Assembly (NCBI GenBank): GCA_041661765.1
Contig: JBAZTV010000001.1
Location: 135,755-199,754, forward strand
Length of the DNA: 64,000 nucleotides
Origin: Candidatus Shapirobacteria bacterium
Lineage (GTDB): Bacteria; Patescibacteriota; Microgenomatia; UBA12405
Reading direction: 5' to 3'
Within the stretch, counting starts at the first letter, position 1; the number at the start of each line of letters is the position of its first letter. The notes below the pieces were generated by a model. That model was not told the DNA's origin. It saw only the letters and a program-made list of their open reading frames with translations, and made no database searches. This document shows positions 2,997 through 16,051 of this stretch, one piece after another. The position numbers and the translations under genes are program-made.

Positions 2997-3414
2997 GAAA
3001 ATATTATAACAACCTTATTCTAAAATAATTTACATATCAATACTATGAAATCTGAACGAAGCTTATGGTTTTAGTATTAATATATCTTTATTATTCCAAA
3101 TCATTGCTGTCCTTTTTGTAATCTTTTGTAGCTAAATGAGAAAATAAGACACTTTTAAAAAAGGGTTTCTTAAAATTATTTATATTATTTAGACCAACTT
3201 AAGTATTTAAATTTCGGCTTTTTTTCAAAAAAATAGGGTTTTTGTTGTAAAAAATGTCAAATGTGATAAACTATAGGCTGTTTTCGTACTTTAACAAATA
3301 ATTGTTGTTTTAGTTTGTGGCTGATGGCTTAGTGAGTACAAATTTTGTGCTTAGTAAGCCATTAGTCATAAAAGACTTTTTAATGGTAATTTTTTTGAAA
3401 AGAGGTTTATTAAA

Positions 3415-11979: not shown

Positions 11980-12116
11980 TTAAAACACCTTTTTTGAAAT
12001 TTTTTTAACCATTACAGGCTATTTTAGCGATAAATGTTGAAAATTGAGAATATTTGACAACAGGTTAGGGGCTATTTGATATAACGATAGGGTCGCACAG
12101 AACACCAAACGTTCGG

Positions 12117-12199
12117 CGGAAGGGATGGGAGTCGAACCCACATGCCATTTCTGACGCAGGTTTAGCAAACCTGTGGCTTACCATTCGCCGCACCCTTCC
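12117..12199 (-). tRNA. tRNA-Ser (anticodon GCU), type II with long variable arm
   Basis: Reverse complement folds as GGAAGGG acceptor, anticodon stem CAGGU/ACCUG with loop UUGCUAA, long variable arm, T-arm GGGUUCGACUCCC. Confidence 0.8.
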
Positions 12200-12254
12200 T
12201 GGGGATAGTGTTTTAGTATATCAAATTTTTCCCAAATGCTTTAAAATTAAAACA

Positions 12255-12794
12255 ATGAAGAAAAAAGCAGTAAGTAGGGTTGATAGGGTTATAAAAGACA
12301 CTAATGAAGAGAAAACTTTAATTGAATGGGAAGCGGCCGAGAGGGCATTTAAGAAAAGAGACAAAGATTTTTGGATCACTGTCGTTTCAATTTTAATTTT
12401 ATTTTCAGTTGTTTTATTTTTTATCGAAGAATTTTTTCTAATTGTCGCTCTCGTTTCAGTTTTATTTTTATATTATGTTCTCTCCACTGTTCCTCCCCAA
12501 GTCGTTAAATATAAAATAACCAATAGAGCCGTCCATTTTGGTGATTCAAAATACAGTTGGGATATTTTATTAAGATTTTGGTTCAGAAAAAGTCTCAATA
12601 CTGAGCTTTTAGAATTTGAAACCAATTTAAGAATTCCTCGACAAATTTCTTTAGTCATCAAAGAATCAGATAAAGAAGAAATTAAAAAAATTGTTTTAAA
12701 GAAATTACCTTTAGTTGAATCATCACCAAATTTTGTTGATAAATTAGCCAAATGGTGGAACGATAAAATGCCTTGGGAAAAACGGGAAAAATAG
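12255..12794 (+). CDS. Hypothetical membrane protein (2 TM), 179 aa
   Basis: ORF track; two adjacent hydrophobic helices. Confidence 0.45.
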   Translation: MKKKAVSRVDRVIKDTNEEKTLIEWEAAERAFKKRDKDFWITVVSILILFSVVLFFIEEFFLIVALVSVLFLYYVLSTVPPQVVKYKITNRAVHFGDSKYSWDILLRFWFRKSLNTELLEFETNLRIPRQISLVIKESDKEEIKKIVLKKLPLVESSPNFVDKLAKWWNDKMPWEKREK

Positions 12795-12826
12795 ACTTTA
12801 TTTGGTATAATTCATATGATTTATTC

Positions 12827-12898
12827 GCGCCCATAGTTTAATGGATAGAATGACGGTTTGCGAAACCGTTGATCCAGGTTCGATTCCTGGTAGGCGCA
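12827..12898 (+). tRNA. tRNA with anticodon GCG (Arg by anticodon)
   Basis: GCGCCCA acceptor, anticodon stem ACGGU/ACCGU loop UUGCGAA, T-arm CCAGGUUCGAUUCCUGG; one acceptor mismatch; overlapping track ORF 12841..13023 is spurious. Confidence 0.65.
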
Positions 12899-12905
12899 CC
12901 GAAAT

Positions 12906-12987
12906 GGAGGGTTGGCCGAGTGGTTTATGGCGCACGCCTCGAAAGCGTGTGGGGAAACCCGCAGAGGTTCAAATCCTCTACCCTCCG
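12906..12987 (+). tRNA. tRNA-Ser (anticodon CGA), type II
   Basis: GGAGGGU acceptor, anticodon stem CACGC/GCGUG loop CUCGAAA, long variable arm, T-arm AGAGGUUCAAAUCCUCU, 3' ACCCUCC-G. Confidence 0.75.
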
Positions 12988-13040
12988 CAATCTTTCGCTA
13001 AAGCTTCAGAATTACATGCCTAATCTGATAATATTGTAAT

Positions 13041-13349
13041 ATGTATTACACTTACATATTACATAGTTCAAAATCTCATATTTTCTATTTCGGATCCACG
13101 ATTGATTTAAAAAATAGGTTTACTCTTCACAACACTGGACAAGTAAAATCTACTAAACCACACCTACCTTGGAAATTAGCTTGGTATTGTGGATTTGAAA
13201 CAGAAAAACAAGCCAGAGATTTTGAAATATATTTAAAGACTGGATCTGGAAAAGCTTTTGCATATAAAAGATTTGTTTCTGAAGCTTTAATGAAAGATTT
13301 TGAGAATGGTCGAGTTCCCCATGGTCTTACGAAACCGAAGGTGAAGTAG
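13041..13349 (+). CDS. GIY-YIG domain endonuclease (small, stand-alone)
   Basis: 102 aa; YYTYILHS...IFYFGSTIDLKNRFTLHN = GIY-YIG motif with Arg and His/Asn; followed by duplicated tRNA-Ser 3' end. Confidence 0.7.
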   Translation: MYYTYILHSSKSHIFYFGSTIDLKNRFTLHNTGQVKSTKPHLPWKLAWYCGFETEKQARDFEIYLKTGSGKAFAYKRFVSEALMKDFENGRVPHGLTKPKVK

Positions 13350-13471
13350 ACCTCTACCCTCCGCCTTCGCTCGCCATAGCTCACTTCGGCGGACAAAGTT
13401 CGCCATTTTCTGCGAAGGCGAGAATGTATTAAAACTCTCTCTAACTTTCCTTATGATGATACAATCATAGG

Positions 13472-14923
13472 ATGATTTCGGCAAAAAACATATTTTATTC
13501 CTACGGCAAAGAGAACATTTTTGAAGGTGCCAACTTTTATGTTGCCAAAAATAGCAAAGTTGGTGTCGTTGGGGCCAATGGTTCTGGTAAGTCCACTCTT
13601 TTTAATTTAATTACCGGTGAAGATCGTATTGATGATGGCAACCTTGACATCGTCGGCGATGTCATGTCTGTTCCTCAAGAAGTCAAACACGATGCCACCA
13701 TGGAAAAAGCTGAATCAATTCGCGATTATTTAGATCCTTATTGGCAAAAACAAGATTACGAACTTTTAAAAATGCTTTCTAAATTAGAATTATCTCGTTT
13801 ATCTCTTGAGGGTAAACCTCAAGTTTTAAGTGGTGGCCAAAAAACCAAATTAGCCATTGCCAGGGCTTTAATTTTTGAGCCAGACATTTTACTTTTAGAC
13901 GAACCCACTAACTTTTTAGACGTCGAAGGTAAACTTTGGATGATGAACTTTTTAGGTCGTTATTCCAAAACTCTAATTATTATTTCCCATGATCTAAAAT
14001 TACTCGACAAAAACATCGATAAAATTATCGAAGTTGATAAACGAACCAAACAAATCACTGAATATAACGGTAATTACAGTAATTATGTTAATTTAAAAGG
14101 TGAGAGAGAAACCCTTTTGATTAATCAAATTCATGTTCAAGAACGAAAGATTATAGATATGAAAAAAGGCTTAGTCAGAATTTCTGGCAATCGATCTGAA
14201 AAAGGTGTTCGTCAAAAACTTAATTTGCAAAAAAGAATTGAGAAATTAGTAGTCGCTCTTCCAGAAATGCCACCAAGTGTTAAAAAAATTAACATGCAAT
14301 TACCCGAGCCAGCTTGGGTTGGCGAAGTTCCATTTATAGTCAAAAATATATGTAAGTCTTATGGTGAAAAAAAAGTTTTAACTGATATAAATTTTGATAT
14401 TAAAAGAGGTGAGAGAATTGCTCTCATGGGTCAAAATGGTGCTGGTAAAAGCACTTTAATTAAAATTTTAATGGGCATGTTAATCCAAGATTCCGGTGAA
14501 ATTATCAAAGATGAAAAATTAAAAATTGGTTATTACTCCCAAGAATTTGAAACTTTTGACATGGAGAAAAATCTTTTAGAAACAGTCAAAGATAAATGTG
14601 AAATGACGGAAGCTCAACTTCGTTGTTTATTAGGCCGATTTTTATTCCCCGGTCAAAAAGTTTTTCAAAAAATATCTACCCTTTCTGGTGGTGAAAAAAC
14701 CCGTCTTTCTATTGCCACTCTTCTAGCCAAAAATTACAACCTTTTAATTCTCGACGAACCAACCACTTACCTCGACGTTCTTTCACAAAGACTAATTTTA
14801 GAAGCCCTAAAATTTTATCAAGGCGCCATGATTATCGTCAGTCACACCCCCGAATTTATCGCCGAATTAAAACCCAGTCGCAAATTTCTTCTCCCAGAAA
14901 ATAAAATGGAATTATGTCAATAA
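13472..14923 (+). CDS. ABC-F family ATPase (tandem ABC domains, no TM; EttA/Uup-like translation factor)
   Basis: Two Walker A (GANGSGKST, GQNGAGKST), two LSGG signatures, two Walker B/D-loops. Confidence 0.85.
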   Translation: MISAKNIFYSYGKENIFEGANFYVAKNSKVGVVGANGSGKSTLFNLITGEDRIDDGNLDIVGDVMSVPQEVKHDATMEKAESIRDYLDPYWQKQDYELLKMLSKLELSRLSLEGKPQVLSGGQKTKLAIARALIFEPDILLLDEPTNFLDVEGKLWMMNFLGRYSKTLIIISHDLKLLDKNIDKIIEVDKRTKQITEYNGNYSNYVNLKGERETLLINQIHVQERKIIDMKKGLVRISGNRSEKGVRQKLNLQKRIEKLVVALPEMPPSVKKINMQLPEPAWVGEVPFIVKNICKSYGEKKVLTDINFDIKRGERIALMGQNGAGKSTLIKILMGMLIQDSGEIIKDEKLKIGYYSQEFETFDMEKNLLETVKDKCEMTEAQLRCLLGRFLFPGQKVFQKISTLSGGEKTRLSIATLLAKNYNLLILDEPTTYLDVLSQRLILEALKFYQGAMIIVSHTPEFIAELKPSRKFLLPENKMELCQ

Positions 14924-15256: not shown

Positions 15257-16051
15257 GTGCTAAACTCAAATATGATTTCTAACGTTAATAAAAAATATTT
15301 TATTTTTATAGACGAGTCTGGAACTTCAGATGTTAAATCTTTTAAAATTCAGCCATTTTTTACTGTTGTCGGTCTAATGATTGGAGAAAATAATAGAGAA
15401 AAAATGAAAATTGATTTTGAAGATTTAAAATTAAAACATTTTGGATCAAAAAATTATGTTATACATAATACTGAAATACGCAGAGATTTAAAAACAGATA
15501 TAAAAATTAAAAACTTTTCCTTAGATTTAGAAAAATTTTTAAATAAATATAACTTTTTTATTTTAAGTACTAACGTTGATAAAGAAAAAGCTTTCCGACT
15601 CGGATGGAGCAAAAATACTGTTTTAAACAGATCATATCGTTCGCTTTTTTCTAATTTATTAAAATTTCTTATTGCTAAAAATCTAAAAGGACAAGTTGTT
15701 AGTGAAGCCAGTAATTCAGAACAAGATATTATTATTTATCAAAATGTTTTCCATTATTTAGTCAATGGTATTAGTAATCTAAATATCACGCCTCAAGAAT
15801 CTAAAAAACATTTAACTTCAATTAGTTTTGTTACCAAGTTTAATAATGATCCAGAAGAACAAATAGCTGATTTATATGGAGTTTGTCCCAGACTTAAAGA
15901 AGAAATTAACAACAAAGATATAAAAAATTTAAATCCGATTCAAAAAGTATTATTGGCTAGTTTTGAAAAGAAATTATTTATTGGATTCGCTAAGAAAAAA
16001 GATAAAGTAAGACTTTATAAAGAAATAAAGTCTACTGTTAAATTACCCTAA
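15257..16051 (+). CDS. DUF3800 family protein
   Basis: N-terminal YFIFIDESG motif characteristic of DUF3800; possible start at ATG 15272. Confidence 0.6.
   Translation: MLNSNMISNVNKKYFIFIDESGTSDVKSFKIQPFFTVVGLMIGENNREKMKIDFEDLKLKHFGSKNYVIHNTEIRRDLKTDIKIKNFSLDLEKFLNKYNFFILSTNVDKEKAFRLGWSKNTVLNRSYRSLFSNLLKFLIAKNLKGQVVSEASNSEQDIIIYQNVFHYLVNGISNLNITPQESKKHLTSISFVTKFNNDPEEQIADLYGVCPRLKEEINNKDIKNLNPIQKVLLASFEKKLFIGFAKKKDKVRLYKEIKSTVKLP

Follow-up and report, generated by a model that had tools for sequence, protein, structure and literature searches.

In a 64-kb stretch of a Candidatus Shapirobacteria contig (JBAZTV010000001.1, positions 135,755 to 199,754; the whole stretch is called the window below) we have studied a short segment that lies directly behind a tRNA-Ser(CGA) gene, contains a gene for a small GIY-YIG nuclease and is bounded by two copies of a 14-nt direct repeat. 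The window is AT-rich (33% G+C) and carries one 16S rRNA gene and five tRNA genes; homologues of its genes are found in Candidatus Shapirobacteria and in other Patescibacteria. The repeat-bounded segment, referred to as the element, and its neighbours are arranged as follows.

12827-12900: tRNA-Arg(GCG), just upstream of tRNA-Ser(CGA)
12906-12988, plus strand: tRNA-Ser(CGA), the target gene, intact (found by ARAGORN; Rfam tRNA match of 58.3 bits at 12906-12987)
12975-12988, plus strand: copy 1 of the direct repeat, CCTCTACCCTCCGC, equal to positions 61-74 of tRNA-Ser(CGA)
12989-13350, plus strand: the element proper between the repeat copies, 362 bp, with bounds taken from the repeat and from the family-wide junctions
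13041-13349, plus strand: GIY-YIG nuclease gene, 102 aa, Slx1/UPF0213-type (Pfam PF01541, E = 7e-15)
13351-13364, plus strand: copy 2 of the direct repeat (target-site duplication, TSD)
13472-14923: ABC-F gene downstream of the element

The repeat comprises the 3′ strand of the T-stem, the 3′ strand of the acceptor stem, the discriminator G73 and C74. The left boundary of the element lies directly after position 74 of tRNA-Ser(CGA); at the other end the stop codon of the GIY-YIG gene (TAG, 13347-13349) is followed 2 nt later by copy 2. Between the copies (12989-13350) we found no credible gene besides the GIY-YIG open reading frame (ORF), and no integrase, no Cas1 and no family B polymerase. 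The window contains one such element. A sequence-only reading of this DNA had pointed to the duplication behind the GIY-YIG ORF, to the absence of other genes between the copies and to a partial similarity past both copies. The duplication is exact and the segment has the stated content; the similarity is real as well, extending without gaps to 31 nt at 81%, and it evidently comes from the left end of the element resembling a GC-rich segment behind copy 2.

There is hardly any probability that the repeat arose by chance or through faulty assembly. It is true that tRNA ends are G+C-rich and conserved, and that two contigs of the same locus (L002 and L003; loci and contigs are given by L numbers, homologous proteins by P numbers) break inside the tRNA. 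However, CCTCTACCCTCCGC occurs at two places only in the window, even when two mismatches are allowed, and 0.04 matches are expected from shuffled sequences; the locus was assembled independently in three samples, and 48 other loci, all differing in sequence, follow the same rule. Samples that contain the locus are ERZ27249449, SRR18595301 and SRR6484324.

For a comparison with empty sites, contigs of ABC-F homologues were retrieved and read. Two of them (L104 and L105, with ABC-F 94% identical) have the gene order of the window, i.e. tRNA-Ser(GCT) on the minus strand, a homologue of the p179 gene, tRNA-Arg(GCG), tRNA-Ser(CGA) and ABC-F. In both contigs tRNA-Ser(CGA) is just 44 nt from ABC-F and the GIY-YIG gene is absent. 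The comparison is orthologous because the final ~35 nt before ABC-F (ATGATACAATCATAGGATG...) are common to the window and to L104/L105. Empty orthologous sites have a single copy of the repeat, and by this comparison the window element is an insertion. The reverse situation was found at a second tRNA gene of the same block.

12115-12199, minus strand: tRNA-Ser(GCT) (ARAGORN), an unoccupied target in the window genome whose orthologue is occupied in L007, L008 and L010

A more distant Shapirobacteria contig, L010, has the block of p179, tRNA-Arg and tRNA-Ser(CGA) without an element after tRNA-Ser(CGA), and its tRNA-Ser(GCT), beside the p179 homologue, has a GIY-YIG element with its own 13-nt duplication, while the window counterpart is empty. 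The tRNA-Ser(GCT) genes of L007 and L008 are occupied in the same way; beyond copy 2 these three loci are unalignable, and their tRNA 3′ ends differ from each other. In three further contigs (L106-L108, ABC-F 92% identical) the interval between tRNA-Ser(CGA) and ABC-F contains another small gene, of 82 aa, with the Pfam domain T4_Y16D. The spot between tRNA-Ser(CGA) and ABC-F is hypervariable among close relatives, and the tRNA cluster is a hot spot for insertion. For polymorphism within populations, exact-protein look-ups with the window GIY-YIG protein, p179 and p89 gave nothing but the same filled locus, and with ABC-F they gave no match. Two further candidates for empty sites, L084 and L085, which came from a metagenome scan with the junction TCAAATCCTCTACCCTCCGCCTTCGC, were rejected as not orthologous, since they have tRNA-Ser genes in other contexts followed by the GC-rich segment.

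Several other rearrangements were seen around this block. In L107 (854-1913) the T4_Y16D gene begins 11 nt behind the tRNA, and a GDSL lipase gene lies between tRNA-Arg and tRNA-Ser. In L110 (1562-2457; ABC-F 85%) the block of tRNA-Ser(GCT), p179, tRNA-Arg and tRNA-Ser(CGA) is flipped relative to the window (12115-12988) and to L104 (1586-2456), which turns tRNA-Ser(GCT) towards ABC-F. It has the appearance of an inversion that took place between the two tRNA-Ser genes, which point in opposite directions, or between elements once inserted at both. The tRNA-Ser(CGA) genes of L104 (2370-2456) and of the window (12906-12988) are strongly divergent despite a near-identical tRNA-Arg and 94% identity of ABC-F, and L107 has the window type, which suggests that the tRNA-Ser gene was replaced by recombination, perhaps along with the insert behind it.

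The window protein has hundreds of homologues at 70-90% identity in many candidate phyla. A family set was made of the best 80 loci of 132 relatives from a scan of one genome per species, and each locus was analysed with ARAGORN and a longest-common-substring script. A plus-strand tRNA gene was present at most 276 nt upstream of the homologous gene in 57 of the 80 loci, and at most 75 nt upstream in 48; the same upstream range contained two minus-strand tRNAs. Nine of the 80 loci have a contig end less than 200 nt from the gene start. The target tRNAs are Gln (25), Ser (16), Asn (10) and Leu, Tyr, Trp and Cys (1 each). They are mostly G73 tRNAs, with G as the discriminator followed by C.

At least 10 nt of the 3′ end of the locus's own tRNA recur behind the ORF in 48 of the 57 loci, as compared with 1 of 57 in the control region upstream of the tRNA. 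The distance between the copies is 330-524 bp with a median of 350 (362 in the window). In a cleaner analysis of the junctions the duplication measures 14 nt (22 loci), 16 nt (10), 15 nt (8) or 13 nt (4) and spans from C61 or C62 to position 74 or to the encoded CCA; it always adjoins a conserved right end, ...GGATA followed by CC. GIY-YIG copies at other tRNAs are therefore common in the set, and most have a matching duplication. Together with the empty site of L104/L105, these counts support the proposal of the sequence-only reading that a tRNA-targeting insertion duplicated its target. Its suggestion that the segment might be the remnant of an integrative element did not hold: the unit is complete and uniform in size (more than 40 genomes have it at ~350 bp), ends in inverted repeats of its own and contains no integrase.

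More distant members (45-60% identity) have spurious N-terminal 'extensions' that are in fact the translated T-arm of the tRNA and the left-end motif, e.g. ...SRVQIPSAPPSFAKASEWLA-M... and ...VVGSNPTAGAILRQGYG...; the architecture thus reaches past the tight subfamily. Similar artefactual extensions occur on many GIY-YIG homologues (P0024, P0126 and P0137 among them). No relatives were found among the viral contigs of IMG/VR, so that no phage vector is evident.

Some loci differ in structure or in source. In L006 (1661-2000) the 3′ end of a full tRNA-Ser(GGA), beginning at the T-arm, recurs ~230 nt behind the gene, and the element comes only after this longer duplication. A more distant GIY-YIG gene in L058 (58-431; 38% identical) starts 71 nt after tRNA-Tyr and has neither a left-end motif nor a visible duplication, and second, more distant GIY-YIG genes were matched in L025, L026, L034 and L077; there may be a wider link of small GIY-YIG genes to tRNA genes in these genomes. 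Elements with tRNA and duplication were also present on contigs labelled Weeksellaceae (L072), Scalindua (L057/L065) and Gammaproteobacteria (many), which means either mis-binning or mislabelling, or real spread beyond the phylum.

Both ends of the element carry conserved motifs, with an additional inverted copy inside the gene.

12989-13020, plus strand: left-end motif AATCTTTCGCTAAAGCTTCAGAATTACATGCC, a hairpin-like palindrome whose outer pairs take in G12987 and C12988 of the tRNA
13277-13299, plus strand: R1, the internal copy, which repeats the left end in inverted form within the ORF, coding for SEALMKDF, 21/23 (91%) complementary to 12989-13011
13323-13350, plus strand: R2, the right end, GGTCTTACGAAACCGAAGGTGAAGTAGA, which overlaps the stop codon and adjoins copy 2 (13323-13352 with CC)

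The family consensus of the left end (~32 nt, xATCCTTCGCYAARGCTACGGAATyGCATGCC) is kept in ~70 loci, directly behind copy 1. The seven proposed pairs of its hairpin are 97.3% paired in 63 distinct sequences, as compared with ~30% of cells when the columns are slid by 1-3. Pair 3-27 is A-U in 29 sequences, C-G in 22 and U-A in 11, and pair 7-22 is C-G in 39 and U-A in 22. The pair made with the tRNA discriminator covaries as well (G-C 50, A-U 5). For the extended inner stem of the hairpins covariation was partial only.

The right end has the family consensus GGTAGTCCGAAGC..GCG(T/A)AGGATA followed by CC and again resembles the left end in inverted orientation; its stem GGTA.../...TACC borrows CC, the opening dinucleotide of copy 2. 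The family has the terminal inverted repeats (TIRs) characteristic of transposons: xATCCTTCGCYAARGCTACGGAAT on the left and TCCGWAGC..GCGWAGGATA on the right. In the window subfamily the terminal inverted copy has diverged and the best inverted copy is the internal one, while R2 has a compensatory stem GGTCT/AGACC that is also predicted by the folding program. Across the family R1 codes for S-(V/E)-A-L-x-K-D-F and is 88.8% complementary to the left end over 23 positions. Double changes in R1 and the left end are found at 9 of the 23 positions, including synonymous positions of Leu, Ala and Lys codons and the Val/Glu switch. Pairing of the left end with the internal copy at the RNA level was rejected as unsupported, because G.T and A.C mismatches between the two are equally frequent (52 and 54).

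Two kinds of insert occur at the left end. In L005 (1860-1985) and in L087-L096 a 27-nt tandem repeat (ATTCCCAAGTTTAGAATTGCATGCCAC, 4-5 copies), derived from the end of the left-end motif, stands between the motif and the ORF; the distance from ABC-F to GIY-YIG differs between samples, which would fit variation in the copy number of the tandem repeat. In the unrelated loci L007 (about 810-855) and L053 the motif is split by the same hairpin-like insertion of ~42 nt (ATCCGTCGCTACTACGTAGCTATGGAATAG...), possibly a nested mini-element.

The GC-rich segment, or trailer, follows copy 2 in the window.

13365-13425, plus strand: GC-rich hairpin segment with a terminator-like stem at 13388-13404

The segment is predicted to fold stably (-14.6 kcal/mol, z = -2.8), and close relatives lack it at their empty orthologous sites. 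It recurs behind copy 2 of an unrelated element (L038, 2353-2420) and directly behind tRNA-Ser genes that have no element: in L084 at 61-190, twice in tandem, and in L085 at 3340-3413 on the minus strand. Its 5′ part (CCTTCGCT...AGCTACGG) is common with the left end of the element and its 3′ part (AGTCCG...GCGAAGG) with the right end. The trailer may be a miniature without an ORF, derived from the element ends or ancestral to them, that had reached this tRNA end at an earlier time. Behind the trailer of L085 stands CTTTATCTTTC; it differs from the tRNA end CTCTACCCTCC by C-to-T changes only and is possibly a decayed older duplication.

The only Pfam domain found in the GIY-YIG protein is PF01541, matched over residues 1-71; NCBIfam has no model matching the protein. 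The GIY and YIG motifs read YTYIL (residues 3-7) and FYFG (15-18). Y16, R26 and E62 are invariant in 35 sequences, Y3, Y5, H30 and N31 are conserved in at least 90%, and the catalytic Arg and the metal-binding Glu align with those of the UPF0213 protein BH0048. In a profile search of the PDB the closest solved sequences were the UPF0213 proteins BH0048 and EF2693. The AlphaFold2 model (predicted local distance difference test score, pLDDT, 84) has strands at 2-9, 14-20 and 44-52, helices at 23-31 and 55-66, and a long helix at 68-88 before a disordered tail. Foldseek ranked Slx1 (6seh, 7cq2 and 4xlg), UPF0213 (BH0048; 1zg2) and the plant Slx1-like protein HIGLE on top, with probability 1.0 for Slx1 and UPF0213; I-TevI was far weaker (E about 0.8), and UvrC was also far lower. 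By sequence and by model, the protein is a predicted nuclease of the UPF0213/Slx1 branch of the GIY-YIG superfamily.

The 102-aa protein has no separate DNA-binding domain, and its final ~25 codons make up the inverted-repeat region. One homologue, P0130, joins a different N-terminal GIY-YIG core to a tail of the window type, which suggests that the DNA end is modular. Pairwise dN/dS ratios (non-synonymous to synonymous divergence) are 0.04-0.14 with dS of 0.4-1.5; on these values the protein is under strong purifying selection and the lineages are old.

The sequence-only reading had also proposed a homing-endonuclease-like selfish gene. In a full scheme of this kind, the product of a free-standing endonuclease gene would cut the empty tRNA locus in related cells, and double-strand-break repair, or plain recombination following DNA uptake, would copy the gene with its flanks; the repeat would go back to a first, illegitimate insertion and be passed on by co-conversion. 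Classical homing endonucleases include GIY-YIG enzymes, and in phage T4 the SegA-G genes are free-standing genes for such enzymes, notably SegB, which acts in a tRNA gene cluster (PMC2330249). Like the Seg genes, the gene studied here stands alone at a tRNA gene, looks selfish and encodes a GIY-YIG catalytic domain. The few copies per genome and the stable location within populations suit homing, and the hypervariable tRNA-Ser(CGA)/ABC-F region and the divergent tRNA-Ser genes of the window and L104 fit replacement of a whole cassette by recombination.

However, homing neither creates nor needs TIRs or a TSD, and the element has both, with duplications of 13-16 bp. The repeats match the local tRNA over at least nine tRNA species and many phyla, and related elements stand at different tRNAs. 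Seg enzymes have a C-terminal DNA-binding region, and their genes, which lack inverted-repeat ends and a duplicated target, spread by homing when phages co-infect a cell; the 102-aa protein lacks the separate DNA-binding region (linker, NUMOD or helix-turn-helix) of I-TevI and Seg and has the Slx1/UPF0213 fold, and no relatives of it were found in phage contigs. We consider homing an unlikely explanation. The label of a homing-endonuclease-like gene is kept in part only; the gene is better described as a minimal nuclease of Slx1/UPF0213 type within TIRs and a TSD than as a classical homing cassette.

Several observations speak for a selfish element. The nearest neighbour of the window protein is that of L004 (92%), and the L028 protein is nearest to that of L004 (96%). 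L028 has the spacer sequence of the window; it also has an in-frame stop and a deletion and is a pseudogene copy. The flanks of L005 and L028 hold non-matching tRNA-like fragments. A solo left-end motif was found behind copy 2 in L071, L041 and L081 (38 nt identical in L071). Elements that are nearest neighbours often stand at different tRNAs (Tyr and Gln at 84%, Gln and Ser at 82-83%, Trp and Gln at 78%), and in one metagenome-assembled genome (MAG) a pair of tRNA-Gln genes is occupied by related copies (L061 and L063). The distribution of the element is patchy. The duplications are exact in most loci though synonymous sites are near saturation. A neutral relic would not stay matched to its own tRNA, and we infer that the duplication is made or renewed from the local tRNA, or is under selection.

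Exact repeats in old lineages look as if they were needed for excision, which would be the case in a mini-element of the attachment-site (att) type. Such an element would be excised as a circle between the 13-16 bp repeats and re-integrated by pairing of its core with a tRNA 3′ end, followed by Slx1-like resolution; the repeats would be attL/attR cores that belong to the element and travel with it. Branched DNA and Holliday junctions are substrates that enzymes of the Slx1 family resolve (descriptions of PDB 6seh and 7cq4), and serine isoacceptors with identical 3′ ends (CGA in the window and L084, UGA in L085) would permit hopping. Nevertheless, a carried core cannot explain related elements at unrelated 3′ ends (Gln, Asn, Ser, Tyr, Trp, Leu), and L004, whose protein is 96% identical to that of L028, occupies another tRNA end, where its 15-nt repeat is perfect. 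A length of 13-16 bp is also very short for homology-driven exchange, and no circle junction was observed. This account is improbable in our view. Islands and prophages of tyrosine integrases resemble the element in leaving the tRNA whole and in being flanked by direct repeats of its 3′ part; they are, however, kilobases long and have an integrase and an att core of their own, whereas here the repeat is target-derived and the repeat-bounded segment contains no tyrosine or serine integrase.

Strict co-orientation with the tRNA, the short distance to it and strong purifying selection could also be expected of a domesticated host gene tied to tRNA genes, such as a repair or defence nuclease, with the repeat and hairpins acting as processing or termination signals of a tRNA-mRNA co-transcript; the stable location in populations and the way the repeats track the tRNA sequence agree with this. 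Presence or absence at orthologous sites of close relatives, pseudogenes and solo ends do not, nor do the many tRNAs involved and the patchy distribution, and wobble pairs show none of the strand asymmetry by which pairing of RNA would be recognised. We give such a host gene very little credence. Homing, an att-type element and a domesticated gene are each hard to reconcile, as the sole explanation, with the many different targets and their self-derived repeats, with the TIRs and with the pattern of presence and absence.

We therefore favour the view that 12989-13350 is probably an intact member of a family of ~350-bp TIR/TSD elements specific for tRNA 3′ ends, with the nuclease as the putative mobility enzyme. 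The nuclease would recognise the hairpin-like, branched or symmetric ends of the element as well as the T-arm and acceptor end of the tRNA gene, and would cut the target with a stagger of ~14 nt: the top strand behind position 60/61, the bottom strand behind ~74. Filling of the stagger by the repair system of the host would give the duplication, and host ligation would complete the insertion. The elements observed lie directly 3′ of the tRNA, are co-oriented with it and have imperfect TIRs of ~25 bp that can form hairpins, with stems that reach 2 bp into the duplication. An insertion past the mature 3′ end would spare the tRNA, and the site would be a safe haven. The nuclease gene would be expressed by read-through from the tRNA promoter, as the ORF starts 25-75 nt behind the tRNA in 48 of the 57 loci; in many elements the start codon directly follows the left-end motif, so that a separate promoter has no room. 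One weak promoter-like sequence was seen in the window.

13005-13032, plus strand: weak sigma-70-like match ahead of the ORF, TTCAGA-16-GATAAT (9/12 matches)

With four sites found and 2.5 expected this match is not significant, and it is probably unneeded if read-through transcription of the tRNA reaches the gene.

A number of points weigh against an active element of this kind. A hydrolytic nuclease of ~100 aa cannot itself join DNA, so that host functions or an unknown partner must be needed. The staggered cut of 13-16 nt is deduced from the duplication alone, and nuclease activity and mobility are likewise deduced. The hairpins of the window are thermodynamically weak (z = 0.7 and -0.6); the case for hairpins therefore comes entirely from covariation, which could equally mean symmetric binding sites for a protein. 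The copy number is low, with one MAG alone giving two of the 80 loci. Identical proteins stand in the same context in many samples, and the abundant homologues P0007 and P0044 have one context each, so that mobility is not rampant. Finally, ~14 loci have a 3′ fragment of the tRNA only, or flanks that do not match.

In its behaviour the element most resembles site-specific TIR/TSD transposons: it has TIRs and a target-derived TSD. It lacks a transposase of any known class (DDE, DEDD, HUH, Ser, Tyr or Cas1). The minimal core of its protein, of beta-beta-alpha-beta-alpha type with catalytic Y, R and E, is that of UPF0213/YhbQ (COG2827) and of the eukaryotic Slx1 domain (1zg2, 1ywl, 6seh, 7cq2). 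These proteins are regarded as host repair or structure-specific nucleases, and our literature search found no association of UPF0213/YhbQ or Slx1 with tRNA 3′ ends, TIRs or TSDs. The IS200/IS605 elements are also very small and have hairpin ends, and bases adjacent to those ends pair with the target, as GC/GT of the present element does with the discriminator and C74; unlike it, they use an HUH (Y1) transposase and single-strand transposition, with no target duplication and no tRNA specificity.

Casposons have TIRs and a long duplication (about 14-15 bp) at a tRNA gene 3′ end, and their size range is 10-20 kb. The tRNA 3′ end as target and the duplication are thus common to casposons and to the element; casposons carry a Cas1 integrase and a polymerase, whereas the element has ~0.35 kb and a nuclease only, with neither Cas1 nor a family B polymerase. 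Casposons are Cas1-based self-synthesising transposons (PMC5137440, PMC4046053). The Dada elements of eukaryotes use a transposase of the DDE type, have short TSDs and insert within the RNA gene, whereas the present element is found at the tRNA 3′ end. They share its tRNA specificity, as DNA transposons with TIRs and TSDs whose targets are strictly tRNA and small RNA genes (PMC3706591).

One study of Patescibacteria mentions a 'GIY-YIG catalytic domain protein' only as an entry in its list of genes acquired by horizontal transfer (PMC12455944). Our full-text literature search found no description of a GIY-YIG element at tRNA 3′ ends with TIRs and a TSD; subscription papers are thinly covered by such a search and an earlier description is possible. 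The family is apparently undescribed so far.

A bolder version, which we offer tentatively and would not call the likelier outcome, is that the family represents a new class of prokaryotic DNA transposon. Its only protein would be an Slx1-like GIY-YIG 'transposase', the tRNA would be recognised partly through pairing between hairpin and target, cuts staggered by ~14 nt would be joined by host repair, and the GC-rich trailers would be ORF-less derivatives. With ~0.35 kb such an element, if autonomous, would to our knowledge be smaller than any known autonomous mobile element. If the nuclease does mobilise it, a new nuclease family would join the DDE, DEDD, HUH, serine, tyrosine and Cas1 movers of prokaryotic DNA, and homing endonucleases would be linked mechanistically to transposons. 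Such an extremely compact module for site-specific insertion at a universal target, the 3′ ends of tRNA genes, would also be of interest for genome engineering. Even on a conservative reading, the co-oriented tRNA, the exact 13-16 nt duplication and the covarying ends make a clean and directly testable system.

The element accounts for some oddities of Patescibacteria annotation, namely a 'GIY-YIG nuclease family protein' beside tRNAs, ORFs that run across tRNAs and contigs that break at tRNAs, and it shows that the 3′ ends of tRNA genes are hypervariable spots for insertion in genomes as reduced as these. An ORF of the second kind is present in the window: a 60-aa ORF at 12841-13023 (plus strand) spans tRNA-Arg and tRNA-Ser and is a gene call in the ENA record (L001, 2801-2983); it is an annotation artefact. 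Rfam searches, made over the region at a permissive E-value and over the whole window at the gathering score, matched tRNAs and the 16S rRNA only, leaving the end motifs and the trailer unmatched. Two genes downstream of the element, at 15257-16051, the window contains a DUF3800 gene (PF12686, E = 8e-7).

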